This document shows, one piece after another, positions 8,218 to 60,335 of a DNA stretch of 64,000 nt. Within the stretch, counting starts at the first letter, position 1, and every line of letters begins with the position of its first letter. This DNA is from Gaiellaceae bacterium. GTDB lineage: Bacteria; Actinomycetota; Thermoleophilia; Gaiellales; Gaiellaceae. The notes beneath the pieces were generated by a model, which did no database searches, had not been told where the DNA came from, and was given only the letters and a program-made list of their open reading frames with translations. The position numbers were made by a program, and so were the translations under genes. The stretch is from positions 1,192 to 65,191 of the forward strand of contig DASSVO010000038.1 of assembly GCA_035706005.1 (NCBI GenBank), written 5' to 3'.

Positions 8218-8733
8218 GTGGAACCGACTCCTGCTCCGACCGAGGCGACGCCCCGCCCGATCGATCCCGGCGTGGACATCGGCCATGTTCATCTGAAGGT
8301 GTCGGACATCGACCGGGCGCTCGAGTTCTACTGCGGCGTGCTCGGTTTCGAGGTCATGGCCCGCATGGGCGACCAGGCGGCCTTCATCTCCGCGGGCGGC
8401 TACCACCACCACCTCGGTCTGAACACGTGGGAGTCGAAAGGCGGCGCACCCCCGCCGCCCGGCACGACGGGCCTGTACCACACGGCGATTCGCTACCCCG
8501 ACCGGCGCACGCTCGCGGATGCGCTGCAGCGCGTGCTCGACGCCGGTGTCCCGCTCGACGGAGCGAGCGATCACGGCGTCAGCGAGGCCCTCTACCTCCG
8601 CGATCCCGACTCGAACGGCGTCGAGCTCTACCGCGACCGGCCGCAGGAGGAATGGCCGCGCACGGAGGACGGCGAGTTCACGATGTTCACGAAGCCGCTC
8701 GACCTGGGCGGCCTCCTCGCCGAGCTCGGCTAG
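8218..8733 (+). CDS. VOC (glyoxalase/dioxygenase) family protein
   Basis: IGHVHLKVSDIDRALEFYCGVLGFEV...GYHHHLGLNTW...SEALYLRDPDSNGVELY. GTG start. Confidence 0.85.
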   Translation: MEPTPAPTEATPRPIDPGVDIGHVHLKVSDIDRALEFYCGVLGFEVMARMGDQAAFISAGGYHHHLGLNTWESKGGAPPPPGTTGLYHTAIRYPDRRTLADALQRVLDAGVPLDGASDHGVSEALYLRDPDSNGVELYRDRPQEEWPRTEDGEFTMFTKPLDLGGLLAELG

Positions 8734-8736
8734 CTC

Positions 8737-9261
8737 TCAGCCCTCCCTGTGCTTCAGGTCGCCCTCGCGCTGCTGCGCCTCGGCAAGCGTCAGCCGTCCC
8801 GAGCAGACCTCGTCGTTGAGCTCGTTCTCGATCCTGTCCACGTCGGCCGCACGCGGGTAGGGCTCCGGCCAGAGGTTACGCGGGTCGGTCGGGTGGCCGC
8901 CGAGCTCGAGGCTGATCAGGTGATCCTCCTGGTAGTCGGAGAGCGAGCCCGTCTCTCGGTACTGGCGCATCTGCTTCCGCTTCAGGTCGTTCGTGTACGA
9001 GGTCGGCGGGCGGATCGTCGACGTCCAGCCGTGACGGCAGATCGTGGAGCGGATGTTCGCCTGCGTCACGTCCGGATTGAGGACGCCCGGCGTGCGCACC
9101 GGATCGGCGAGGATCGCGGGCTTCGCGCGCGCATGGCCGCGCGTCAGCACGAGCACGACGGCCGCGACGAGCAGCAGTCCGATGAGGAAGTCGACCGGGG
9201 TGAGCGGCCTCGTCACCCGGGCGACGGTAGGTCGCCCGCCGAGACGCCGCAAGACGCTCAT
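8737..9261 (-). CDS. Membrane-anchored HNH-nuclease-like protein
   Basis: Starts MSVLRRLGG at 9261 (in frame), followed by one TM helix. The C-terminal block reads YQEDHLISLELGGHPTDPRNLWPEP...DEVCSG. Confidence 0.6.
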   Translation of the reverse strand: MSVLRRLGGRPTVARVTRPLTPVDFLIGLLLVAAVVLVLTRGHARAKPAILADPVRTPGVLNPDVTQANIRSTICRHGWTSTIRPPTSYTNDLKRKQMRQYRETGSLSDYQEDHLISLELGGHPTDPRNLWPEPYPRAADVDRIENELNDEVCSGRLTLAEAQQREGDLKHREG

Positions 9262-9297
9262 CGAGCCGTGTCCAGGCGAGGCAGTACGCTCGCGGAC

Positions 9298-10143
9298 ATG
9301 GTCGAGCTGGTCGTTCGCCCCCGCGGTCCGTACTCGCTCGCGCTCTCGGCGCGCCTCGCCGGCGACGCAACGCGCCGGATGCGGGAGGGGCTCGTCACCG
9401 CCCGCTGCGGCGGCGGCGTGGCCTGCGCATGGCAGTCGCCGGACGGCACGGTGACGATCAGATCCGAGTCCCGGGCTGCAGCGGAGAAGCTGCGCTGGAT
9501 GCTCGCGGTCGACGACGACCACTCCGAGTTCCTGCGGCGCTTCGCCGACGACCCGCTGCTCGGCCGCGCCTCCAAGCACCTACGCGGCCTACGGCCGGTG
9601 CGGACGGCGACCGTCGCGCAGGCTCTCCTGCGTGCAGTCTGCGGGCAGCTCGTCGACTGGAAGACGGGACGAAGTCTCGAACGACGTGTGATCCGGGCGC
9701 TCGCGCCGGCCGACGAAGCCGGGCTCAGCGAGGCGCCGTCCTGCACCGCCCTCGCGGCCGTGGCGCCCTTCGAGCTGAGGCGTCTCGGTCTGCACGAGCG
9801 GCGTGGTGCGGCCGTCGTCCGCCTCTGCCGCGGCCTCGAGCTCGAGCGCCTCCACGAGCTGCCGACCGATGCCGTGGTCCGCCGGCTCGAGCGAGAGCGC
9901 GGGCTCGGCCCGTGGTCCGCCGGTGTCGTCTGTCTCGAGGGACTGGGCCGCTACGAGCACGGCCTCGTCGGCGACCTCGGGCTCGTGAAGCTCCTGCGGG
10001 CGCTGCGCGGCCGGCCGGTGGAGGCCTGGGAGACGGCGGAGCTGCTCGAGCCGTACGGCGAGTGGGCAGGTATCGCGAGCGTCTATCTGCTCGCGGGCCT
10101 CGGCCGCGGCCTGATCCCGCTGCCCGCGGCGCGCGCCGCCTAG
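9298..10143 (+). CDS. DNA-3-methyladenine glycosylase II (AlkA-like, HhH-GPD)
   Basis: ATG 9298 (MVELVVRPRGPYSL). Contains GLGPWSAGVVCLEGLGRYEHGLVGDLGLVKL. The upstream part of track ORF 8749..10143 is junk. Confidence 0.75.
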   Translation: MVELVVRPRGPYSLALSARLAGDATRRMREGLVTARCGGGVACAWQSPDGTVTIRSESRAAAEKLRWMLAVDDDHSEFLRRFADDPLLGRASKHLRGLRPVRTATVAQALLRAVCGQLVDWKTGRSLERRVIRALAPADEAGLSEAPSCTALAAVAPFELRRLGLHERRGAAVVRLCRGLELERLHELPTDAVVRRLERERGLGPWSAGVVCLEGLGRYEHGLVGDLGLVKLLRALRGRPVEAWETAELLEPYGEWAGIASVYLLAGLGRGLIPLPAARAA

Positions 10144-17705: not shown

Positions 17706-18719
17706 CTACGGCTCGAGCACGACGCCGGCGCCTTCCTCCACCACACCCACCCGGGCGAGGAAGAGGCCCGCGCGCCCGAACTCCGCCTCGAGCGAAAGAG
17801 CCTTCTCGGCCGGCAGCGTCACGAGCAACCCGCCCGCGGTCTGGGCGTCGTAGGCGAGTGCGAGCAACTCGTCCGGCACGCCGTCGCTCGCCACGTGGGC
17901 GCCTGCGAAGTCGCGGTTCCGGGGATCGCCGCCGGTGCGGACGCCGTCACGCGCAGCCTCCACCGCTCCTTCGAGGGCCGGCAGCGCGGAGGCACGGAGC
18001 CGGATACGAACGCCGCTCCGTTCCGCCGTCTCGTGCGCGTGGCCGAGCAGCCCGAAGCCGGTGACGTCGGTCACCGCGTGCGGCGAGAAGGACCGCAGGA
18101 TCTCGGCCGCGCGATCGTTGAGCGTCGTCATCCAGCGCGCCGCCTCCGCAAGATCCCCCTTCGTCGCCAGCACGAGCCCGGTGCCGAGCGGCTTGGTCAG
18201 GAAGACGGCGTCTCCGGGCCGGGCGCCGCTCTTGACCCACACGCCGTCCGGATGCACCGTGCCGACCACCGCGAGGCCGTACTTCGGTTCGACGTCGCGA
18301 ATCGTGTGGCCGCCGGCGAGGATCGCACCTGCGGCCCGCACGGCCTCGTCCGCCCCCCTGAAGACCGCCGAGACGAGGTCGGTCGCGAGCTCCTCCGGAA
18401 AGGCCGCGATCGAGAGCGCGAGCAGCGGCGTCCCGCCCATTGCGAAGACGTCGTTGAGCGCGTTCGTCGCGGCGATCCGGCCGAACAGCGCGGGATCGTC
18501 GACGAGAGGCGGGAAGAAGTCCACGGTGAAGACGAGCGCGCGCTCGGCGTCGAGCCGGTAGACGGCGGCGTCGTCGGCGGGATCGAGGCCGACGAGGAGG
18601 TCCTCCGCCTCCGCCGGGACGAAGCCTTTCAGCAGCTCCTCGAGCCGCGCGGCGGAGTACTTCGCCGCACATCCTCCGCCGACGGTGAGGCTCGTCAGTC
18701 CGGCCGCTTCGGTCTCCAC
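17706..18719 (-). CDS. selD: Selenide, water dikinase (Cys-type)
   Basis: GTG 18719 is in frame. N-terminal LTSLTVGGGCAAKYS has Cys at the Sec/Cys position. Also DPALFGRIAATNALNDVFAMGG and TDVTGFGLLGHA. A longer start would overlap the divergent SDR gene. Confidence 0.9.
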   Translation of the reverse strand: METEAAGLTSLTVGGGCAAKYSAARLEELLKGFVPAEAEDLLVGLDPADDAAVYRLDAERALVFTVDFFPPLVDDPALFGRIAATNALNDVFAMGGTPLLALSIAAFPEELATDLVSAVFRGADEAVRAAGAILAGGHTIRDVEPKYGLAVVGTVHPDGVWVKSGARPGDAVFLTKPLGTGLVLATKGDLAEAARWMTTLNDRAAEILRSFSPHAVTDVTGFGLLGHAHETAERSGVRIRLRASALPALEGAVEAARDGVRTGGDPRNRDFAGAHVASDGVPDELLALAYDAQTAGGLLVTLPAEKALSLEAEFGRAGLFLARVGVVEEGAGVVLEP

Positions 18720-18738
18720 GCCGTTTACTGTAGGCCGA

Positions 18739-19434
18739 ATGGCTCGGGCTGCACTCGTCACCGGCGGCTCGTCGGGCATCGGCCTCGCGATTGCACGGAT
18801 GCTCCGGGACGAAGGCTTCGACCTCACCCTCGTCTCGCGGACGCCCGAGAAGGTCGAAGCCACGGCCGCCGAGCTCGGCGCCGCAGCCGTCGCTGCGAAC
18901 GTCGCCGAGGCGGAGGACTGCGAGCGAATCGTCGCGGAGCACCGCGACCGCTACGGCCGCCTCGACGTGCTCGTCAACTCGGCCGGAGTCGGTGTCGGCG
19001 GCCGGGTCGAGGAGCTACCCGTGAAGCACCTCGACCTCCAGCTCGACGTCAACCTGCGCGGGCTCTTCCTCGTCACGCAGGCGGCGATCCCGCTCCTGCG
19101 GGAGTCCCGCGGATGGATCGTCAACCTCGCCTCGATCTCGGGCACCCTGCCGACCCCATGGCTCGCAACCTACGGCGCCACGAAGGCGGCCGTGATCGCG
19201 CTCACCCGGTCGCTCAACGAGGAGCTCGACGGCGACGGCGTCCGGGCCATCGCGCTCTGTCCCGGCTTCGTCGACACGGCGATGGCGCAGTGGTCGGGAA
19301 TCGAGCCGAGCGAGATGATCCGGCCCGAGGACTGCGCGGAGGTGGTGCGCATGTGTCTCCGGCTCAGCCCGACGGCGCGGATTCCGTCTGTCGTCGTCGA
19401 GCGGATGGGCTCCCGCAACGGGGACGTCCACTGA
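18739..19434 (+). CDS. SDR family oxidoreductase
   Basis: ATG 18739 (MARAALVTGGSSGIGLA). Contains the YGATKAAV catalytic motif. Confidence 0.85.
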   Translation: MARAALVTGGSSGIGLAIARMLRDEGFDLTLVSRTPEKVEATAAELGAAAVAANVAEAEDCERIVAEHRDRYGRLDVLVNSAGVGVGGRVEELPVKHLDLQLDVNLRGLFLVTQAAIPLLRESRGWIVNLASISGTLPTPWLATYGATKAAVIALTRSLNEELDGDGVRAIALCPGFVDTAMAQWSGIEPSEMIRPEDCAEVVRMCLRLSPTARIPSVVVERMGSRNGDVH

Positions 19435-29756: not shown

Positions 29757-30920
29757 ATGACCGCCGAGATCCTCGACCTCGAAGGCGTGCGCGCACGCTT
29801 CCCGGCGCTCGCGTCGGGTGTCGCGTTCCTCGACGGACCAGGAGGCACGCAGTGCCCCCTGACCGTGATCGACGCGATCGCCGCCTACCTGCGCGACTCG
29901 AATGCCAACCTCGGTGGAGCGTTCGCGGCCAGCCGCCGCAGCGACGAGCTCGTCGAGCGGGTGCACGAGACAGCCGCAGGTCTCCTCGGGTGCAGGCCCG
30001 AGGAGACGATCTTCGGCCAGAACATGTCGACGCTGAACTTCGCGCTGACCCGCTGCCTGGGCCGGACGCTTTCCGCAGGAGACGAGATCCTCCTCACCCG
30101 TCTCGACCACGACGGCAACGTCGCGCCGTGGCTCGAGCTTGCCGCCGATCTCGACCTGCGGGTCGACTTCGTCGAGATCCGCGAGGACACCACTCTCGAC
30201 CTCGACGACCTCGAGCGGAAGCTGACCGAGCGCACTCGCGCCGTCGCGTTTCCGCTCGCCTCCAACGCCTTCGGCACCGTGCCGGATGCCGCACGCGTCG
30301 TCGAGCTCGCACATGCCGCGGGAGCGCTCGCGTGGGCGGACGCCGTCCACTACGCCCCGCACCGGCCGATCGACGTCGCAGCCCTCGGCGTCGACGTCCT
30401 CCTCTGCTCGCCGTACAAGTTCTTCGGCCCGCACCTCGGCCTCGCCTTCGGACGCGAGGAGCTGCTCCGCGCGTGGCGGCCGTACAAGGTGCGGCCGGCG
30501 GCCGACGAGCCGGTCGGCCACCGGTTCGAGACCGGGACGCTCGCGCACGAGCTCCTGGCGGGTTTCGTCGCGGCGGTCGACTACCTCGCGGAGCTCGGCT
30601 GGAGCGCGATCGAGTCGCACGAGAGGGAACTCGGCGAGCGCTTCCTCGCCGGACTGCCGGATCGCTGCACGCTCTACGGGCTCGCGACGATGGAGGGACG
30701 AGTGCCGACGTTCGCCTTCCGGGTCGACGGCGTACCGCCGCGCGAGGTGTCCGCGCGGCTGGCCGCACGCGACATCGCAGTCTGGGACGGCGACTACTAC
30801 GCCGTCGAGGGAATGGAACGGCTCGGCCTCCAGCCCGACGGCGCAGTCCGGGCGGGCTTCGTCCACTACAACACGTTCGACGAGGTCGACCGGCTCCTCG
30901 ACGCGCTGACGGACCTGTAG
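29757..30920 (+). CDS. Class V aminotransferase, cysteine desulfurase-like protein
   Basis: 387 aa: FPALASGVAFLDGPGGTQ..., SNAFGTV, CSPYKFFGPH. Confidence 0.8.
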   Translation: MTAEILDLEGVRARFPALASGVAFLDGPGGTQCPLTVIDAIAAYLRDSNANLGGAFAASRRSDELVERVHETAAGLLGCRPEETIFGQNMSTLNFALTRCLGRTLSAGDEILLTRLDHDGNVAPWLELAADLDLRVDFVEIREDTTLDLDDLERKLTERTRAVAFPLASNAFGTVPDAARVVELAHAAGALAWADAVHYAPHRPIDVAALGVDVLLCSPYKFFGPHLGLAFGREELLRAWRPYKVRPAADEPVGHRFETGTLAHELLAGFVAAVDYLAELGWSAIESHERELGERFLAGLPDRCTLYGLATMEGRVPTFAFRVDGVPPREVSARLAARDIAVWDGDYYAVEGMERLGLQPDGAVRAGFVHYNTFDEVDRLLDALTDL

Positions 30921-36265: not shown

Positions 36266-37456
36266 TCAGGGTTCGAGGTCGTACGGGTAGTTCGTGAGCA
36301 CGTCGGCGCCCTGCTCGGTCACGAGGACGACGTCCTCGAGCCGGACGCCGCCGTAGCCGACGCGGTAGAGCCCCGGCTCGACGGTGACCACGTCACCTGC
36401 GAGGAGCTTCTTCCGCGACAACCGTCCCATCCCGGGCTCCTCGTGCACCTCGAGGCCGACGCCGTGGCCGAGTCCGTGGAAGAACCCGTCGCCCAGCGTC
36501 TCACCGGGAGTCTTCGTGCGCTGGGTCGGCTCGCCCGCCGCCTCGAAGATGTCGCAGGTGACGTCGAAGACCGCGCGCGCGTCCGCGCCGGCACGAATCC
36601 CCGCCACGGCGGCGTCGAGCGCCTCCTTGACGAGGCGATGCCATTCGCGCACGTGATCGGGCACCTCGCCGACGACGAAGGTCCGCGTCATGTCCGTGTA
36701 GACGGCGGAAGCATTGTCACGGGGCCAGATGTCGACGACGAGCGGCGTGCCGGGCGGAATCGGCCCCGAGCCCATGTCGTGACCGACGGCGCCCTGGGCG
36801 CCCGGCGCGACGATGTACTCGTCGGCGGTCGTGTCGTGCCTGGCGAATGCCACGCTCATGTCCGCCTTCACCCGCTCCACCGTGAGCTGCTCGCCGTCGA
36901 GGAGCAGCGCGTCACCGCGGATCTCCGCCCGCCGGAGGAGCTCGCGGCACGCGTCCATCGCCGCCTCGGCTGCGCGCTGTGCCCGCCGCATCCCCGCAAG
37001 CTGCGCCTCGGTCTTGGCGCGCCGGCGTGCGTCGAAGAGATCCTGGTCGACCTCGAGCTCGACCCCGTCGCCCCGGAGCCGGTCGGCGAGCCAGACAGGG
37101 AAGTTCTCGGGCACTGTCGCCCGCTTCAGGCCGAGGCTTCCGGTGGCCCGAAGCGCAAGCTGCGCGTCCAGCTCCCGGCGCTCGATCCCCGACGCGATCA
37201 GCTCGTCGGCGCCGAACTCCTCGTGCACGTGCACGTCGAAGAGCCCGAGCTCGCGTAGGCGACCTGCTTCCATCGAGCTGGCGAACACGTGCCGGTCGCC
37301 GTTCCGCTCCGCGTAGAGAAACGGGTCCGGGACCCCGAGAGGCACCGCGTGGCGCATGTCGGCGGACCGGAACGAGTCGCCGTAGATGAGAACCGCGTCG
37401 GCCACGAGCGCCACCGATGCTAGCGATCCGATGCCGGTTCCTTCGGCGCTTCTCAT
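36266..37456 (-). CDS. M24 family Xaa-Pro aminopeptidase
   Basis: The ATG at 37456 was placed by residue count. Contains HGLGHGVGLEVHEEP and VEPGLY. The upstream part of track ORF 36266..37645 is Arg-rich junk. Confidence 0.85.
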   Translation of the reverse strand: MRSAEGTGIGSLASVALVADAVLIYGDSFRSADMRHAVPLGVPDPFLYAERNGDRHVFASSMEAGRLRELGLFDVHVHEEFGADELIASGIERRELDAQLALRATGSLGLKRATVPENFPVWLADRLRGDGVELEVDQDLFDARRRAKTEAQLAGMRRAQRAAEAAMDACRELLRRAEIRGDALLLDGEQLTVERVKADMSVAFARHDTTADEYIVAPGAQGAVGHDMGSGPIPPGTPLVVDIWPRDNASAVYTDMTRTFVVGEVPDHVREWHRLVKEALDAAVAGIRAGADARAVFDVTCDIFEAAGEPTQRTKTPGETLGDGFFHGLGHGVGLEVHEEPGMGRLSRKKLLAGDVVTVEPGLYRVGYGGVRLEDVVLVTEQGADVLTNYPYDLEP

Positions 37457-37485
37457 CGCGAACGTGGATACTCGCGGGTCGAGTG

Positions 37486-38913
37486 ATGGCGGCCATCGGC
37501 GAAAGAGACGATCCGGCCTTCCCGGTCGGAGCGGTGTGCCGGATCGACTCGCGCGCGCCGTGGCGGCAGGTCGCGGAGATCCCGGTCGGCCTCGACCCGG
37601 AGGGAATCGCCGTCGACGTCGCGCGGCGGCGCGCGTTCGTCGCATGCTCGCGCAGCGACTTCGTCTCGGTCGTCGACCTCGACTCGCACGAGGTCGTCGC
37701 GGAGATCGCGACCGGCGCCGAGCCGATCGACATCGGACTCGACGAGCAGACAGGCCGCGTCTTCACTGCCGACGCACACTCCGACCAGGTGACGATCATC
37801 GACTCGGCGACACTCGAGGTGGAGACCGCCCTGCCGGTCGGCGGCTATCCATCCGGCCTCACGCACGTCCCCGAGTACCGTCGGCTCTACGTCGGCAACT
37901 CGCTCGGGTCGACGATGAGCGTGATCGACCTCGACACGCTCGAGACCGTCGCCACCGTCGACGCCGAGCCCGGCGCCGGCGCGATCGGCGTCGACTCGAC
38001 ACGGCGCCTCGTCGTCTGCGTCAACTTCGTCGCCGCCTCCGCGAACTTCTACGACGTCGACTCCTTCGAGGAGATCGCGCGGCTTGAGCTCGGCACCGGC
38101 ACGTGCGCGATCGGGATCGTCCCCGAGCGCGGCGAGGCCTTCATCGTCAACTCGATCGCCGGCACCGTCTCACGCGTCGACCTCGAATCGATCGAGGTCG
38201 TGGAGGAGATCCGCACCGGCCAGGCACCGGTCGGACTCACGGTCGCGCCGGCGCACGACCGGATCTACGTCACGAACCGGGGCGCCGGCACCGTGAGCGT
38301 GCTCGGCGTCGCCGATCGGTGCGAGTGGTCGCAGATCCCGGTCGGCAACGGCCCCGGCGGAGTCGTCGTCGACCCGCACGACGGCCGCATCCTCGTCGCC
38401 AATGCGGGCAGCCAGACGATGTCGATCGTCGAGGACCTGCTCGCCGCGAAGCCGCCGGCCCCGGTCGTCGAGGAGTCGAGCCCGTGGCTCGGGAACCGGC
38501 TGCCGGCGTTCGCGCTCGAGGACTACTGGACGGGCGAGCGGCGCACCAATCACGACTGGGCGGAGAAGAAGTACATCCTCAACTTCTTCGCCTCGTGGTG
38601 AGGACCGTGCAACGCGGAGGCGCCGTTCCTCGAGGAGCTGCGCGTTCGCGAGGAGGCCCGGTCGGGCCTCGAGGTCGTGCTCGTCGACATCTGGGAAGGG
38701 ACGGAGCCTCGCCCCGAGGTTGAGCGGTTCTGCGACATGTGGGGCATCAAGGGGCCGATCCTCCTCGACCCGGGTGGCGAGCTCGCCACGACGCTCGGCG
38801 TGCGCGGCGTGCCGACGAACGTCGTCGTCGACTCGGACGGGACGATCCGCGCCTTCGGGGCAGCGCGGCTCGATGAGCTCGAGCAAGCGATCGACAGCCT
38901 CTACGGCCGGTAG
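37486..38913 (+). CDS. Predicted selenoprotein: YVTN beta-propeller repeats fused to a TlpA/ResA-like redoxin with W-U-G-P-C (Sec at 38599-38601)
   Basis: Track ORF 37417..38601 ends at ...YILNFFASW-TGA. The same frame continues GPCNAEAPFLEEL...RGVPTNVVVDSDGTIRAF to TAG 38913. Track ORF 38677..38913 is in frame. The TGA sits exactly at the first Cys of the redoxin CxxC. Confidence 0.75.
38609..38649 (+). promoter_or_regulatory. Candidate SECIS hairpin
   Basis: Lower stem GCAACGCG (38609-38616) pairs with CGCGTT(C)GC (38641-38649). Upper stem GAGG/CCTC closes the loop CGCCGUU at 38621-38627, 20-26 nt after the UGA. The structure is imperfect, and an alternative 7-bp hairpin lies at 38652-38669. 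Confidence 0.35.
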
Positions 38914-38918
38914 GGCGG

Positions 38919-39560
38919 ATGGCGCTGCTGCGCGCCGAAGAAGAGACCAGGGTCCGGGAATGGTTCGCCGAACTCGAGCGGCCGGTGGAGCTCCTCGTGG
39001 CGGTCGGTCCCGAGGAGACGCCGCTTCCCGGTGCGGGTGACGTCGACTTCGGCGCGGAGATGATGCGCGTGTGCGAGGGGCTGGCGGAGCTCGGCGAGGC
39101 CGTGACCTGCCGTCGGGAGGAGGAGCCGGACGGCTTCCCCCGCTTCCCGGCCGTCTCCATCCGTCCCGAGGGGCGCGATTCCGGAGTCCGGTACGACGGG
39201 CTGCCGTGGGGTTACGAGCTCGGCTCGCTCGTCGGCGCGATCGTCGAGGCCGGCCGCGCCGAGCCCTCGCTGCGTCCCGAGTCGCTCGCGGCCTTGGGCG
39301 AGCTCGACCGCGACCTCGCGCTCGACGTCTTCGTCACGCCGACTTGACCGCACTGCCCGCCGGCCGTGCTGCTGGCGTTTCGGTGCGGCTTCGCTTCGGA
39401 GCGGGTGGCGGCGACCGCGATCGAGGCCAACGAGTTCCCGCAGCTCGCGCAGGAGATGCAAGTCTGGGCGGTGCCGCGCATCGTCGTCGACGGCGTACCG
39501 CAGTGGGACGGGGCGGTGCCCGAGCCCGAGTTCCTCCGCCGGATCCTCTCGGCCGCCTAG
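38919..39560 (+). CDS. Predicted selenoprotein: PDO/AhpF-N-terminal-like glutaredoxin-type protein with T-U-P-H-C (Sec at 39345-39347)
   Basis: Track ORF 38919..39347 ends at ...LDVFVTPT-TGA. The same frame continues PHCPPAVLLAF...EANEFPQLAQEMQVWAVPRIVVDG to TAG 39560. Track ORF 39366..39560 is in frame. This matches the vfvTptCPyCp...efp.la..y.V..VP pattern with U at the first Cys. Confidence 0.75.
39348..39388 (+). promoter_or_regulatory. Candidate SECIS hairpin
   Basis: Outer stem CCGCAC (39348-39353) / GTGCGG (39383-39388). Inner 7-bp stem CGCCGGC/GCTGGCG closes the loop CGUGCU at 39365-39370, 18-23 nt after the UGA. Confidence 0.45.
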
Positions 39561-39718
39561 CCGGTCAGCTTGACGGCGAGCCAGAGCCCGGCGAGGCCGC
39601 CGAGGCAGCCGAGCGCGAGCGAGGCGACGCCGAATGCGCTCCCACCCCAGGCTTCCGGGAGGAACCCGCCGACCGTGGTGCCGACACCGACGAAGATCCA
39701 GACAACGCGTCTGTCCAT
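39557..39718 (-). CDS. 53-aa two-TM small membrane protein
   Basis: ATG 39718 gives MDRRVVWIFVGVGTTVGGFLPEAWGGSAFGVASLALGCLGGLAGLWLAVKLTG. Lies 32 nt downstream of the preceding minus-strand gene. Below the track length cutoff. Confidence 0.4.
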   Translation of the reverse strand: MDRRVVWIFVGVGTTVGGFLPEAWGGSAFGVASLALGCLGGLAGLWLAVKLTG

Positions 39719-39750
39719 GGGCGCTCTATCGGCTTACGCCTCTGGGATCT

Positions 39751-40512
39751 TCACAGGCGTACGCGGAACGAGCGCCGCCGGCCGCCCACGGACGTCGGCA
39801 GCTCGACTCGCGCGACGACCGTTCCATGCACACGCCCGCGGTACGTGAACTCGGCGATGCCGGTGCTGCGCGGAAGAAGCTCGCGCCGTCGCGGCCTCAG
39901 CCTTGAGAGCACGCGGCCGTGCCGGAACAGCACGAGCCGCAACGCGGCGCCGCCGAGCCGCTCCGTCACATTGCCGCGGTTGACGAGACGCAGCTCGAGC
40001 AGCTGCCGCGCTCCGACCCGGCGAACCGTGAGGGCGCGCGTGTCGAGCCGTCGCACGACCCGGCCGCGGACGTGGAGGACGACGAGGACGCCGACACGTA
40101 CGCGCACCCGGACTCGCCGCACGCTGAGGGGGCGTGTCGTCAGGAGCACCAGGGCCGGGTGGTCTCCCGGCTCGGCGCGCCGCGGCACCGCGACACGGAC
40201 GTGGAGCATCGCCTTCGCTCCCGGTGCGATGCGGATCCTGCGCGGACGCAACCGCAGCCAGGTCGCCGCGCCGCGCGCCGGTCGCACCCGCGGTTTCCCA
40301 CGCAGGGAGCGCGCGAAGCCGGCGCGCGAGACGTCGACGATCAACGTCCTACGGCCGGGATTCCGCACCCCGATAGCGGCCGCCGATGCGCCTTCGAGCC
40401 TCAGGCGGAGCGGGCTCGCGCTGAGCCCGATGCCGGGGCCGGGAGCGGCCGCGGCACCCGGGATGGATGCCGCGGCCATTGCAAGGGCGAGAGCCGCAAC
40501 GGCGCTCTTCAC
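39751..40512 (-). CDS. Secreted, extremely Arg-rich two-domain beta-sandwich protein (PapD/DUF916-like, uncertain)
   Basis: GTG 40512 is in frame and overlaps the upstream stop (GTGA). Signal peptide VKSAVAALALAMAAASIPGAAAAP, then ...AEPGDHPALVLLTT... Confidence 0.55.
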   Translation of the reverse strand: MKSAVAALALAMAAASIPGAAAAPGPGIGLSASPLRLRLEGASAAAIGVRNPGRRTLIVDVSRAGFARSLRGKPRVRPARGAATWLRLRPRRIRIAPGAKAMLHVRVAVPRRAEPGDHPALVLLTTRPLSVRRVRVRVRVGVLVVLHVRGRVVRRLDTRALTVRRVGARQLLELRLVNRGNVTERLGGAALRLVLFRHGRVLSRLRPRRRELLPRSTGIAEFTYRGRVHGTVVARVELPTSVGGRRRSFRVRL

Positions 40513-54814: not shown

Positions 54815-57800
54815 ATGGCGCTCGCGAAGCTCCTCGACTCGTGGCCTGCGCTGCGGCAGCTGCGGGAGGGCGATCCCCTCGGCCTGGGCAAGTCGGTGCA
54901 ATCGCCGCGCTCCCAGCGCCTCGTGCCGCGCCTCGACGAGGCCGAGCACGTCGTCCACTCGATCTGTCCCTACTGCGCGGTCGGCTGCGGCCAGCTCGTC
55001 TACGTCAAGGACGGCGACGTCACCCACATCGAGGGCGATGCGGCGAGCCCGATCTCACGTGGCCGGCTCTGCCCGAAGGGACAGGCGTCGAAGAGCTTCG
55101 TCCAGAGCCCGCTGCGCGAGTACAAGGTCAAGTACCGGCGGCCCTACGGCACCGCGTGGGAGGAGCTGTCGCTCGACGACGCGATGGACATGATCGCCGA
55201 GCGGATCGTCAGGACGCGCGCCGACACGTGGCGCAAGCGGACGGAGGGCGGCGCACCCGCGAACCGCACGATGGCCATCGGCAATCTCGGCGGCGCGACG
55301 CTCGACAACGAGGAGAACTACCTCATCAAGAAGCTGATGACGGCGCTCGGCATCGTGCAGGTCGAGAACCAGGCCCGCATATGACACAGCTCCACGGTGC
55401 CCAGTCTGGGCACCTCGTTCGGACGAGGCGGCGCGACGACCTTCCAGCAGGACCTGCAGAACGCGGACTGCATCGTGATCATGGGCTCGAACATGGCCGA
55501 GAACCACCCGGTCGGATTCCAGTGGGTGATGGAGGCCAGGGAGCGCGGCGCGAAGGTGATCCACGTCGATCCGCGCTTCACGCGCACGAGCGCGATGGCG
55601 ACGAAGCACGTCGGCATCCGCGCCGGTAGCGACATCGCCTTCCTCGGCGGCATCGCCAACTACCTCCTGCAGAACGACCTCTACTTCCGGGAGTACGTCG
55701 AGAAGTACACGAACGCGCCCGTCATCATCGACGAGCGCTTCGTCGGCCCCGAGGATGCGGACGGACTGTTCTCGGGCTGGGATCCGGAGTCCGGGCGCTA
55801 CGACATCGAGTCGTGGCGCTACGAAGGGATGGAGGTTCACGGTGCAGCCGGACAGCGCGGCGAAGGCTTCGAGCCGAGCGGCGAGCAGTCCGGCCACGGG
55901 GCCGCCGGCGGCGGGCTGCATCACGGCGAGCCGCCGGCCGAGGATCCCGAGCTCAACCATCCGCGCTGCGTCTTCCAGATCCTGAAGCGCCACTACCAGC
56001 GCTACACGCCCGAGTTCGTGGCCGAGACCTGCGGCTGCTCGGTGGAGGACTTCGTCGAGGTCTGCGAGACCCTGGCGGCGAACTCCGGCAGGGAGCGGAC
56101 GAGCGCCTTCTGCTACGCGGTCGGCTGGACGCAGCACACCGTCGGCGTGCAGATGATCCGCTCGGCCGCCGTCGTGCAGCAGCTGCTCGGCAACATCGGC
56201 CGTCCCGGCGGCGGGATCATGGCGCTCCGCGGCCACGCGTCGATCCAGGGCTCGACCGACATCCCGACGCTGTTCAACATCCTGCCCGGCTATCTGCCGA
56301 TGCCGCACACGCTGAGCTACCACACCCTCGACAACTTCGTCGACTCGAACACGTCGCCGACGGGCTGGTGGGGGAAGTTCGAGTCGTACTGGGTCAGCCT
56401 GATGAAGGCCTACTTCGGCGAGCACGCGACCGCCGAGAACGACTGGCTGTTTGACCACATGCCGCGCGTCGACAGCGACAACTCCGCCTACTTCACCGTC
56501 CAGCAGATGCTCGAGGGAAACGTGAAGGGCTACATCATCGCCGGCGAGAACCCGGCCGTCGGCCACGCGAACGGCAGGGCCCACCGGCTCGGGCTCGCGA
56601 AGCTCGACTGGCTCGTCGTGCGCGACGTCGTCGAGATCGAGTCGGCGTCCTTCTGGTACGACAGCCCCGAGGTCGAGTCGGGCGAGCTGAAGCCCGAGGA
56701 GATCCCGACCGAGATCTTCTTCCTCCCGGCCGCCGCGCACACGGAGAAGGACGGCTCCTTCACGAACACGCAACGCCTGCTGCAGTGGCACTGGCAGGCG
56801 GTCGAGCCGAAGGAGGACTGCCGTTCGGAGCTCTGGTTCTACTTCCACCTCGGCCGCCGGATCAAGCAGAGGCTCGAGGACTCCGAGGAGGAGCGCGACA
56901 CGCTCATCAAGGCCCTGCGGTGGGAGTACCCGACCCACTCGGCGATCCAGGAGCCCGACGCCGAGGCCGTCCTCCAGGAGGTCAACGGCTGGGAGATCGA
57001 GAGCGGCAAGTTCCTCAGCGGGTATCCGGAGTTGAAGGACGACGGCTCCACCCTGTGCGGCTGCTGGATCTACTGCGGCTGCTTCAAGGACGGGATCAAC
57101 CAGACGGCGCGCAAGAAGCCGCACTGGGAGCAGGAGAGCTACGTCGCGCCCGAGTGGGCCTGGGCCTGGCCGGCCAACAGGCGGCTGATCTACAACCGCG
57201 CCTCGGCGGATCCCGACGGGAACCCGTGGTCGGAGCGGAAGCGCTACGTGTGGTGGGACGAGAGCGAGGGCAAGTGGACCGGCCTCGACGTCCCGGACTT
57301 CAAGGAGGACAAGGAGCCGCACTACGTGCCGCCCGACGACGCGAAGGCCGAGGACGCGATCGCCGGCGCTCACCCGTTCGTCATGCAGGCGGACGGCCGC
57401 TCGTGGCTGTACGTCCCGCAGGGTCTCGAGGACGGACCGCTCCCGACGCACTACGAGCCGCACGAGTCGCCGTTCGACAACCCGCTGTACTCGCAGCGGG
57501 CGAACCCGCGCCGCCAGCAGAACAAGGACCTCGCCGAGGATCCGTACAACCCGGTCGCCGACGAGCCGGGCGCCGAGGTCTATCCGTACGTCGTGACCAC
57601 CTACCGCTTGACCGAGCACCACACCGCCGGCGGAATGACGCGCTCCGTCCCCTACCTCGCGGAGCTCCAGCCGGCGATGTTCTGCGAGGTGCATCCCGAC
57701 CTCGCGCGGGAGGTCGGGCTCGAGCACGGCGGCTGGGCGACGATCTACACGTCCCGGTCGGCGATCGAGGCGCGCGTGCTCGTCACCGAGCGCATGCGGC

Positions 57801-58087
57801 CCCTCCGCAGGAAGGACGGCCGCAGCGTCCACCAGGTGGGGCTGCCGTACCACTGGGGCAAGCGCGGCCTCGTCACCGGCGACTCCGCAAACGACCTCGC
57901 GCACATGGCGCTCGACCCGAACGTCCACATCCAGGAGGTCAAGGCGTTCACCTGCGGGATCCGGCCGGGCCGCCGGCCGCGCGGCCCGGAGCTGCCCCGC
58001 TTCGTCGCCGAGCTGCGCGACCAGGCGCATTCGCGCCGCGAGCAGGAGCCTCGCGTCGAGCCCGAGGAAGTGAGGAAAACGACGTGA
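54815..58087 (+). CDS. Formate dehydrogenase alpha subunit (FdnG/FdoG-type), selenocysteine at 55382-55384
   Basis: Track ORFs 54182..55384 and 55397..58087 share one frame. The junction reads VENQARI-U-HSSTVPSLGTSFGRGG, compared with QARVUHGPTV in E. coli FdnG. The N-terminal 4Fe-4S motif is CPYCAVGCG. The ATG at 54815 is in frame, and there is no RRxF Tat motif. Confidence 0.9.
55396..55414 (+). promoter_or_regulatory. SECIS-like hairpin of the fdh alpha gene
   Basis: GGTGCCC-AGTCT-GGGCACC forms a perfect 7-bp stem. The loop lies 19-23 nt after the UGA. The GUCU-containing loop recalls the E. coli fdhF SECIS. Confidence 0.55.
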
Positions 58088-58989
58088 ACGGTCCTCTCGG
58101 GAGCCTGATGGAGCCCACCGGCATCCCCGCCGGTTGGGAGGCATACGGGGACGAGAAGAAGGAGCGCGTCGGCTTCTTCACCGACACCTCCGTCTGCATC
58201 GGCTGCAAGGCGTGCGAGGTCGCCTGCAAGGAGTGGAACCTCATCCCGGAGGACGGCCGCGCCTGGACCGGCGAGTCGTACGACCACACCTCGCAGCTCG
58301 ACGCGAACTCGTGGCGCCACGTCGCGTTCATCGAGCAGGAGAAGCCGCTCTTCAACAATGGCGACGGCAGCACGGGACTTCGCTGGCTCATGGAATCGGA
58401 CGTCTGCAAGCACTGCACTCACGCCGCGTGTCTCGACGTCTGTCCGACCGGCTCCCTCCTCCGCACCGAGTTCGGCACCGTCGTCGTCCAGCAGGACATC
58501 TGCAACGGCTGCGGCTACTGCGTCCCTGCCTGTCCCTTCGGCGTCCTCGACAAGCGGCACCTGCCGGCCACGACCGACCCGCCGCCGGCGTTCCTCGGCC
58601 GCAAGGAGGACGGCCGCGTCTGGAAGTGCACGCTCTGCTACGACCGTCTGAAGGGTGGCCACGAGCCGGCCTGCGCCAAGGCGTGCCCGACGAAGTCGAT
58701 CCAGTTCGGCCCGCTCGAGGAGCTCCGCGAGCGCGCCGACGCGCGGCTGGCGAAGCTCGAGGCCGAGAACTGGAACGGCGCGCAGCTGTATGGCCGCGAC
58801 CCGGACGACGGCGTGGGAGGCTTCGGCGCCTTCTTCCTCCTGCTCGACGATCCCGAGGTCTACGGGCTGCCGCCGGATCCGGTCGTGACGACGCGCGACC
58901 TGCCGGAGATGTGGACGAACATGCTCGCCGCGGCGGGCGCCCTGCTCGCGGGCGTGACGGCCCTGACGCTCCTCGGAGGCCGGAGATGA
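58084..58989 (+). CDS. Formate dehydrogenase beta subunit (FdnH-like 4x[4Fe-4S], C-terminal TM anchor)
   Basis: GTG 58084 forms a GTGA overlap, and an alternative ATG lies at 58108. Contains CIGCKACEVACKEWN, CKHCTHAACLDVCP and CNGCGYCVPACP, with a hydrophobic tail. Confidence 0.9.
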   Translation: MNGPLGSLMEPTGIPAGWEAYGDEKKERVGFFTDTSVCIGCKACEVACKEWNLIPEDGRAWTGESYDHTSQLDANSWRHVAFIEQEKPLFNNGDGSTGLRWLMESDVCKHCTHAACLDVCPTGSLLRTEFGTVVVQQDICNGCGYCVPACPFGVLDKRHLPATTDPPPAFLGRKEDGRVWKCTLCYDRLKGGHEPACAKACPTKSIQFGPLEELRERADARLAKLEAENWNGAQLYGRDPDDGVGGFGAFFLLLDDPEVYGLPPDPVVTTRDLPEMWTNMLAAAGALLAGVTALTLLGGRR

Positions 58990-59972
58990 CGGAGGCGTTC
59001 CGGCTCGACGGAAAGCCTTCGATCACCGCGGCCGGCAACGACATGCGCTCGTACTACGGGCGTCCGGTGATCAAGGAGCCGGTCTGGACGTGGGAGATCC
59101 CCACCTACTTCTTCACCGGCGGCCTCGCCGGCGCCTCCGCGGTGCTGAGCTCGGCGGCGAGGCTGACGGGGAACGAGAAGCTGGCGCGGACGGCGCTCTA
59201 CGTCGGCGCCGCCGCAGATCTCGTCTCCCCTGCACTCCTCGTCTCGGACCTCGGACGGCCCGAGCGCTTCCACCACATGCTCCGCGTCGTCAAGGTCACG
59301 TCGCCGATGAACCTCGGCTCCTGGGTCCTGCTCGTAAGCGGAGGAGCCTCGACGACCGCGGCGCTGCTCCAGCTCCTCGGCCGCTGGAAGCCGGTGCGGA
59401 TCGCGGCGTCGATCGTCGCCGCGCTGGCGGGTCCGCCACTCGCGACGTACACCGGCGTCCTCATTGCGGATACGGCCGTGCCGGTGTGGCACGACGGGCG
59501 CCACGAGCTGCCGTGGATCTTCGGCGCGAGCGCGGCTGCCAGCTCCGGGGCCGCCGCGTGCGTGTTCGTGCCCCCCGAGGACGCCGGCCCCGCCCGGCGG
59601 GTCGCGATCGCCGGTGTTCTCGCCGAAGGCGCGCTCATGCAGTTGATGGAGCTCCGGCTGGGAACGGTCGGCGAGGTCTACCACCAGGGGCCGGCCGGGA
59701 AGCTCTCCTGGGCGGCGAAGGGGCTCGCGGCCACGGGCGCCGCGGTGCTCGCGAAACGCGGCCGGAAGAGCCGCGGTGCCGCAGTCCTCGGCGGAGCGCT
59801 CGTCTGCGCCGGCGAGCTGTGCCTCCGCTGGTCCGTGTTCAAGGCGGGCTTCCAGTCGGCGCGCGATCCGAAGTACGTCGTCGAGTCGCAGCGGCGACGC
59901 GTCGAGCAGCAGGGGACGAAGGCGACGACGAAGCCCGGCGAGAGCCCGGGCTCCGCGAGCCGCGGCGCATGA
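58986..59972 (+). CDS. NrfD/PsrC-family integral membrane subunit
   Basis: ATG 58986 forms an ATGA overlap. Contains YYGRPVIKEPVWTWEIPTYFFTGGLAG and multiple TM segments. Confidence 0.85.
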   Translation: MTEAFRLDGKPSITAAGNDMRSYYGRPVIKEPVWTWEIPTYFFTGGLAGASAVLSSAARLTGNEKLARTALYVGAAADLVSPALLVSDLGRPERFHHMLRVVKVTSPMNLGSWVLLVSGGASTTAALLQLLGRWKPVRIAASIVAALAGPPLATYTGVLIADTAVPVWHDGRHELPWIFGASAAASSGAAACVFVPPEDAGPARRVAIAGVLAEGALMQLMELRLGTVGEVYHQGPAGKLSWAAKGLAATGAAVLAKRGRKSRGAAVLGGALVCAGELCLRWSVFKAGFQSARDPKYVVESQRRRVEQQGTKATTKPGESPGSASRGA

Positions 59973-59978
59973 GGGCGC

Positions 59979-60335
59979 TCAGCCGCCGCTGACGGTGTCG
60001 AGGTCGGGCACCTGCCCGCTCTCCGGGTGCGGCTGCGTGTACGCCTCGCGGCCGGGCGGGTCGCCGCTCTCCTCGCGGGGCGAGTGCGGCACCTCGTGTT
60101 CGTCGGCTGGCTGGACACGGAGGAGCTGCTCCGCCACCTCGTCGATGTTGTCGTAGCGCCGCTCGGGCAGCCGCTGGAGCAGCGCCAGCTGCTCTCCGCT
60201 CGCCCCCTCCCGCAGGGCGTACTTCAGGAGGGCGGAGCGCTCGTTGGGAAGGGCCACGCCCTCCAGTAGCGTCTGAAGCTCGGCGACGGTCGCGAAGTCC
60301 ACGAGGATTCGGTGCCTCGTTTGGCGCCGCAGCAA
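59979..60335 (-). CDS. DUF2795 domain protein
   Basis: LLEGVALPNERSALLKYALREGASGEQLALLQRLPERRYDNIDEV. GTG 60302 is an alternative start. Confidence 0.65.
   Translation of the reverse strand: MLRRQTRHRILVDFATVAELQTLLEGVALPNERSALLKYALREGASGEQLALLQRLPERRYDNIDEVAEQLLRVQPADEHEVPHSPREESGDPPGREAYTQPHPESGQVPDLDTVSGG

Follow-up and report, generated by a model that had tools for sequence, protein, structure and literature searches.

A probable selenoprotein with a protein disulfide oxidoreductase-like fold, encoded across an in-frame UGA codon in a soil Gaiellaceae bacterium

The locus and its reading frame

The gene described here is located at positions 38919–39560 (forward strand) of a 64,000-nucleotide stretch of the genome of a Gaiellaceae bacterium (assembly GCA_035706005.1, contig DASSVO010000038.1, positions 1,192–65,191), which is referred to below as the window and to which the coordinates apply. 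The gene is divided by an in-frame TGA codon. The analysis indicates that the region is very probably one gene, in which the UGA codon is read as selenocysteine (Sec, U) and which encodes a 213-residue cytoplasmic selenoprotein with the fold of protein disulfide oxidoreductase (PDO) and of the N-terminal domain of AhpF.

The PDO-like gene starts with ATG 38919, five nucleotides past the TAG codon (38911–38913) of the upstream gene, and extends over 142 codons, the last of which encode ...LALDVFVTPT, to the TGA codon at 39345–39347. Beyond this codon the same frame continues as PHCPPAVLLAFRCGFASERV... for 70 codons to the TAG codon at 39558–39560. The residues following the TGA begin with PHCPP, and the joined, complete product comprises 142+1+70 = 213 residues. 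The open reading frame (ORF) listed at 39366–39560 is this continuation counted from an internal GTG codon, 18 nucleotides 3′ of the TGA. A preceding reading of the locus, made from the sequence only, had arrived at the same coordinates, five-nucleotide gap, in-frame ORF and joined length, all of which hold. The UGA codon corresponds to residue 143, the predicted attacking residue of a U-P-H-C motif, and aligns with the first cysteine of CPHC. The predicted resolving residue, Cys146, is the second residue of the UxxC motif and is encoded by TGC at 39354–39356; it is a cysteine in 59/59 Sec-form sequences, where TGC and TGT are used synonymously, and it is equally unvarying in the protein alignment of the homologues. 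In-frame TGA codons with a coding-type G+C content at third codon positions (GC3) on both sides occur three times in the window, i.e. in the PDO-like gene, in its upstream neighbour and in a formate dehydrogenase gene.

Conservation across the TGA codon

The comparison comprised 64 loci of species-representative genomes, almost all of which are metagenome-assembled genomes (MAGs) of Gaiellaceae and other Thermoleophilia from soil. VFVTPT-TGA-PHC is present in 58 of the loci, a recurrence far beyond chance, including loci of Gaiella sp. with a protein identity of only 45–52%, and the same TGA is found on two further metagenome contigs. Two of the 64 loci contain TGC at the Sec position, and relatives from the Chloroflexia read CPYC. 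A protein search reveals full-length homologues of 212–216 residues, with identities of 58–83%, that read TPT-C-PHCPP across the position of the TGA (TPT-C-PHC in P0002–P0011, P0067 and P0103), in agreement with the sequence-only proposal that Sec replaces the first active-site cysteine. Scores of metagenome proteins with 84–94% identity, on the other hand, stop at exactly 142 residues (...FVTPT). The distant Cys homologues are found in the same gene neighbourhood, comprising acetyl-CoA synthetase, YaaH, peptidase M24, PDO and amidohydrolase genes, and are therefore positional orthologues.

The substitution pattern is that of coding sequence on both sides of the TGA. Upstream of the TGA, mean pairwise differences at codon positions 1/2/3 amount to 0.188/0.146/0.372 and the mean amino acid identity to the window gene to 0.78; downstream, the values are 0.167/0.129/0.358 and 0.80. 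In the three codons directly following the TGA (P, H and C) the amino acid is fixed in 59/59 sequences, with synonymous variants CCG/CCA/CCC, CAT/CAC and TGC/TGT. Three close relatives (L020, L022 and L072) contain a PDO-like gene with TGC, while their upstream redoxin gene still has its TGA, and one metagenome variant (P0001, on a JGI contig of 1364 bp) has TGG at the Sec position, giving TPTWPHC. From their sequences these variants look like recent conversions of Sec to Cys or, for P0001, to Trp.

A hairpin of the SECIS type

The UGA codon is followed, after 10 nucleotides, by a hairpin of 20 nucleotides (39358–39377, forward strand; CGCCGGC-CGUGCU-GCUGGCG) that has the geometry of a selenocysteine insertion sequence (SECIS) core. 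It consists of a 5′ arm (39358–39364), a loop of 6 nucleotides (39365–39370) with G at its second position followed by U, and a 3′ arm (39371–39377), the arms forming a stem of 7 bp; the spacing from UGA to loop is 17 nucleotides and the folding free energy (dG) −12.4 kcal/mol. The model for bacterial SECIS (bSECIS) elements specifies a loop of 3–9 nucleotides, a stem of 4–16 bp, a distance of 16–37 nucleotides from UGA to loop and a minimum free energy of at most −7.5, together with a G at loop position 1 or 2, after which G or U is usual (PMC13188914). The PDO-gene hairpin conforms to this model on all four counts and furthermore resembles the bSECISearch model and the Escherichia coli fdhF type in being a stem-loop directly 3′ of the UGA, within the coding sequence. 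A lower helix (39349–39355 with 39381–39387), present in a two-helix fold of the window sequence, was no better than in shuffled sequences and was dropped.

The invariance of this hairpin at synonymous sites is exceptional. None of the 14 stem nucleotides differs among 58 sequences (7/7 pairs invariant). The codons +4 to +10 after the TGA encode PPAVLLA and are without exception four- or six-fold degenerate; their codon entropy averages 0.08 bit. For 81 comparable columns from the rest of the gene the average is 1.05 bit, with none at or below 0.12, and an entropy as low as that of the hairpin codons was not reached in any of 200,000 random draws of seven comparable columns (0/200,000). In the distant Cys orthologues, which provide a decisive control, the same PPAVLLA or PPAVLHA peptide is encoded with synonymous changes that break the stem (CTC, GCC, CCT, GCT and GCG). 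The recently converted Cys forms L020, L022 and L072 retain the stem, with the loop now being CGUCUU in L020 and L022. Codon bias was rejected as an explanation for these frozen codons: such invariance is reached by none of the 81 columns compared, and the Cys orthologues do vary. A SECIS-type hairpin, one of the features by which the sequence-only reading could be checked, is thus present and tied to the Sec forms. The frozen element in the Sec forms and the decaying hairpin in the Cys orthologues together provide a clean natural example of an RNA-level constraint on synonymous sites.

Fold and active site

With Cys substituted for the stop, the product matches NCBIfam TIGR02187 ('PDO_seleno_TRX, protein disulfide oxidoreductase') over profile positions 3–208 of 209 with an E-value of 1.3e-43. 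An AhpF profile is matched over the first ~195 positions, and Pfam Thioredoxin_3 at residues 136–210. A profile built from 43 homologues matches the PDO structures 1J08 (E-value 1.9e-39), 1A8L, 2AYT and 2HLS, and also the AhpF N-terminal domains 1ZYN, 1HYU and 4O5Q. An AlphaFold (AF2) model was made of a natural Cys orthologue, P0003, which is 81% identical to the window protein. This model, with a predicted local distance difference test (pLDDT) value of 95.1 and a predicted template modelling (pTM) score of 0.92, gives Foldseek template modelling (TM) scores of 0.86 to the PDOs 1J08 and 1A8L, and of 0.82–0.88 to the AhpF N-terminal domain. The layout of two thioredoxin folds, of the PDO or AhpF N-terminal type, that had been read from the sequence is thereby borne out.

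In the P0003 model a strand at residues 133–139 is followed by a helix at residues 146–159; residue 143 therefore falls into the turn that leads into helix α1 of the second fold, just before its N-terminal end, as had been anticipated. Residues V185-P186 are invariant and occupy the cis-proline position of thioredoxin folds. The first fold contains no conserved cysteine. The CQYC motif of Pyrococcus PDO is aligned to D-F-G-A, which agrees with the earlier statement that the N-terminal fold has no CxxC motif; the redox centre is therefore present only in the second fold, as in AhpF.

The archaeal and Aquifex PDOs (PfPDO, 1A8L; PhPDO, 1J08; 2AYT; 2HLS) share the architecture of two thioredoxin folds with the Gaiellaceae protein, with TM scores of 0.83–0.86 and 24–30% sequence identity. 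Their C-terminal CPYC motif aligns with UPHC and the cis-proline is conserved. These PDOs have two CxxC sites, whereas the Gaiellaceae protein has D-F-G-A at the first and Sec in the second. In having one active site the protein is similar to the AhpF N-terminal domain (1ZYN, 1HYU, 4O5Q and 5H29), whose two thioredoxin folds likewise contain just one redox centre, located in the second fold. Unlike AhpF, however, it ends at residue 213 and contains no fused FAD/NADH reductase module, and its motif is UPHC instead of CHNC.

The Sec trait of the organism

The window contains further genes that are associated with selenium. A selenophosphate synthetase gene, selD, is located on the reverse strand at 17706–18950 or 17706–18779, its start being approximate. 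It encodes a protein of the Cys type (GGGCAAK) with a TIGR00476 score of 329.9 bits, to be compared with a cut-off of 125, and was also a lead from a tblastn search. Its neighbours on the two sides are a COX15/CtaA-like gene and a gene for a UbiB-like kinase.

The gene for the formate dehydrogenase α-subunit, FdhA, extends over 54833–58087 on the forward strand (start approximate) and has its canonical Sec codon, TGA, at 55382–55384, where the frame reads ...NQARI-U-HSSTVPSLGTSFGRGG (NQARI-U-HSSTV) and where gene-calling logic splits the gene. The NF041513 profile is matched over positions 3–185 before the TGA and 187–1066 after it, the latter part scoring 1494.7 bits. A SECIS-type hairpin of 8 bp (GGUGCCCA-GUC-UGGGCACC) is found at 55396–55414 on the forward strand, 11 nucleotides after the UGA, with a dG of −15.2, a z-score of −3.8 and a GUC loop. 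It shares with the hairpin of the PDO-like gene the geometry of a GU in a small loop. Together with selD, FdhA, the upstream redoxin and the PDO-like protein point to a selenoproteome of at least three proteins that is kept by these organisms. In the region downstream of fdhA (58087–59990), where genes for the β- and γ-subunits of formate dehydrogenase might be expected, GC3 is lower and no ORF has a family match.

A cysteine desulfurase-like gene is present at 29757–30920 on the forward strand (TIGR01976, 405.8 bits). Its match to the selenocysteine lyase SclA is weak (99.5 bits, with a cut-off of 525); judged from its sequence, a link of this gene to selenium supply is possible.

Decoding of the UGA codon

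That the UGA codon is very probably decoded as Sec follows from the Cys homologues, the conservation of the TGA, the coding pattern downstream of it, the frozen hairpin, and the presence of selD and a UGA-containing fdhA in the same window. A reassigned genetic code is ruled out, since TGA terminates 10 of the 23 confident genes in the window. The analysis thus shows one continuous reading frame, recoding signals of the Sec type, the fold and the geometry of the active site, whereas the insertion of Sec itself, the reductant and the client are inferred.

Several observations weigh against a Sec-containing PDO as described here. Although selD and the UGA-FdhA were recovered when Sec machinery was looked for as a check on the sequence-only reading, neither the window nor 60 related loci yielded selA, selB or tRNA-Sec. 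ARAGORN detects no tRNA at all in these sequences, hence no tRNA-Sec, and neither selA nor selB is present among the scanned window ORFs of at least 400 residues with coding composition, or near selD. The TIGR02187 score of 148.8 bits is below the curated NCBI cut-off of 185. The folding energy of the hairpin is unexceptional for a sequence with 70% G+C (z about −1.6), and no Rfam SECIS match was obtained in a gathering-score scan of the window or in a scan of 38400–39700 at E-values up to 10, a null result that carries no information, given the diversity of bacterial SECIS elements. Covariation is not observed either: since the upper stem never varies, compensatory changes are unavailable, and the support for a SECIS element comes from synonymous-site conservation instead. 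With regard to function, the reductant and client proposed below are suggested by analogy and gene order, and the upstream partner gene is separated or missing in about 20 genomes, being absent from 10 loci that still have the Sec-PDO gene (e.g. L036).

Of the alternatives, reading through or suppression of the UGA with a standard amino acid such as Trp, Cys or Arg, in which case the hairpin would be a mere stimulator of read-through, survives best. It would be compatible with the selA, selB and tRNA-Sec results in the window and related loci, and with the P0001 variant, which has a Trp codon at the site. The site, however, is that of the nucleophilic cysteine of a CxxC motif, which is the classic position of Cys/Sec exchange. 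In addition, the hairpin has the bSECIS geometry associated with SelB, with a GU loop that resembles that of the FdhA hairpin, the window contains selD and the UGA-FdhA, and the protein family already has Sec members. Insertion of a standard amino acid is thus highly unlikely.

A second alternative is that the locus contains two separate genes, one for a 142-residue protein that ends at the TGA and one for an independent thioredoxin-like protein of 64 residues that starts at GTG 39366. Public collections hold exactly these two products, as a 142-residue 'alkyl hydroperoxide reductase subunit F' and a 63–64-residue 'predicted thioredoxin/glutaredoxin', and the GTG codon is present in 58/59 sequences. 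Between the TGA and the GTG, however, lie six codons whose amino acids, the resolving Cys included, are invariant while synonymous variation occurs. The GTG, moreover, falls inside the loop of the conserved hairpin and is replaced by GTT in one genome. Since the P, H and C codons upstream of the GTG are conserved and one genome lacks the GTG altogether, the two-gene reading fails. The Cys orthologues are continuous proteins of 212–216 residues, and a 64-residue fragment would be devoid of strand β1 and of the entire active-site turn. The downstream ORF as an independent gene, an outcome that would have spoken against the sequence-only reading, is thus contradicted by the codon conservation before the GTG and by the coding pattern, and its probability is very small indeed. 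The PDO-like gene appears to be systematically mis-annotated, being split into two fragments in every public record inspected.

The weakest alternative, a stop codon created by pseudogene formation or by a sequencing or assembly error, draws on the frameshifts seen in neighbouring genes of some related long-read MAG loci (L047, L055, L058 and L060), but is refuted by the recurrence of the same TGA, followed by PHC, in 58 independently assembled species-representative genomes and on the two additional metagenome contigs, and by purifying selection on both sides of it, and has a negligible probability; the sequence-only reading had likewise discounted a sequencing artefact. In locus L059 the PDO match spans residues 1–102 only; this partial match and the frameshift-like breaks in the four long-read loci are probably assembly errors, with gene decay as the alternative.

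The upstream propeller-redoxin gene

The upstream partner of the PDO-like gene (37486–38913, forward strand, with the start taken from public gene calls) encodes a YVTN β-propeller fused to a Redoxin/ResA-like thioredoxin fold, and is itself interrupted by an in-frame TGA codon (38599–38601) in the context ...FFASW-TGA-GPC, i.e. W-U-G-P-C. This TGA is conserved in 47 loci and synonymous variation is suppressed downstream of it, where an interrupted hairpin of 15 bp is found (38613–38650; dG −26.4, z −3.1). Of the gene pair, this fusion of a propeller to a Sec-containing redoxin is perhaps the more unusual member. Judged by inspection, neither the upstream nor the PDO-like protein appears to have an obvious signal peptide.

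In 34 loci, that of the window among them, the genes adjoin and the two Sec codons are ~745 nucleotides apart; in 12 loci the distance is 1.1–1.66 kb, with a spacing of ~1.64 kb in 11 of the latter. In one of these (L011) the gap contains an aldo/keto-reductase-like gene of ~298 residues on the opposite strand (8621–9517, reverse), recognised by eye from its translation. From the same spacing, such a gene is presumed to be present in the other ten (L013, L016, L018, L019, L024, L025, L031, L055, L056 and L060). A gene of opposite orientation between the pair breaks co-transcription in those 11 species. Locus L047 does contain the partner, in a frameshifted form, and the frameshift-like breaks of L047, L055, L058 and L060 mentioned above are all located in the propeller-redoxin gene.

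A scan of positions 37000–40000 reveals no terminator-like or promoter-like site between the two genes, and in the window genome the pair is probably operonic. The proposal that the genes are co-transcribed thus agrees with their adjacency in 34 loci, but does not extend to 11 of the 12 spaced loci, with their intervening gene of opposite orientation, nor to the 10 loci without partner; the pairing is common but not obligatory.

Proposed function

The protein is most likely a thioredoxin-like electron carrier, by analogy with its structural homologues. In the proposed mechanism, the hairpin at 39358–39377 would recruit SelB carrying Sec-tRNA(Sec) at UGA 39345, with selenophosphate being supplied by the SelD protein encoded 20 kb away. 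In the folded protein the second thioredoxin fold alone carries the redox centre, U143-P-H-C146, opposite the cis-proline at V185-P186. The selenolate of U143 would attack a disulfide, or a sulfenic or selenenic acid, of a client protein, after which Cys146 would resolve the mixed selenenylsulfide. The resulting Se–S bond would then be re-reduced by a flavoprotein of the thioredoxin reductase type that is encoded elsewhere. The scheme agrees with the shuttling of electrons to peroxiredoxins by archaeal PDO and the AhpF N-terminal domain; the former receives its electrons from thioredoxin reductase, and the latter hands them on to a peroxiredoxin.

Whereas the client of AhpF is AhpC, the neighbouring candidate client of the Gaiellaceae protein is the ResA/TlpA-like redoxin fused to a β-propeller. 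In this genome the β-propeller-redoxin(U) encoded directly upstream would be the likeliest client, and it is the most economical candidate; its assignment as the client, based on analogy and adjacency, is tentative and has a less than even chance of being correct. The sequence-only reading had gone further and suggested a dedicated selenium-based relay. Sec-PDO and propeller-redoxin(U) could form such a relay in the cytoplasm, consisting of two selenoproteins and constituting an all-selenium analogue of the electron transfer from the AhpF N-terminal domain to AhpC. Substrate selection would fall to the propeller, and the relay would be a conserved feature of the abundant aerobic Gaiellaceae of soil. 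The idea is plausible as an interpretation of the frequent pairing, but the pairing is not obligatory (34 loci with adjacent genes, 12 spaced and 10 without partner), and the existence of a dedicated relay is doubtful. If it does exist, a major soil lineage would depend on selenium in a way that has not been appreciated so far.

Relation to known selenoproteins

The TIGR02187-type family has been listed as a predicted selenoprotein family with a UxxC motif, with reported members from Carboxydothermus hydrogenoformans (ABB15282.1) and Symbiobacterium thermophilum, and later from Asgard archaea (PMC1794560, PMC9312934, PMC13188914). A 'Prx-like thiol:disulfide oxidoreductase, UxxC' is likewise a listed family. 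The term 'seleno' is part of the NCBI model name for TIGR02187. The window protein shares with the Carboxydothermus and Symbiobacterium proteins the organisation as a stand-alone protein of ~210 residues with two thioredoxin folds and UxxC in the second. It differs in its UPHC motif, its sub-cut-off profile score (see above) and its frequent pairing with a β-propeller-redoxin(U) gene. The hosts also differ: the known family has been reported from Firmicutes, Symbiobacterium and Asgard archaea, whereas the window gene belongs to soil Gaiellaceae/Gaiella (Thermoleophilia), for which a full-text literature search yielded no selenoprotein report under Gaiella or Thermoleophilia. The PDO-like gene represents, with good support, a known selenoprotein family in a new lineage and not a new kind of selenoprotein; apart from its recurrent pairing with the propeller-redoxin(U) gene, nothing about it is unusual. 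It extends the known family to a widespread actinobacterial lineage of soil and reveals no new mechanism.

Downstream neighbourhood

The gene next after the PDO-like gene is located on the opposite strand. At the 3′ end of the PDO-like gene a hydrophobic ORF of 53 residues (MDRRVVWIFVGVGTTVGGFLPEAWGG...; 39557–39718, reverse strand), for which no family match was obtained, runs towards the gene and extends into its stop codon. Gene calls for L001, L002 and L072 include a similar small gene at this position.

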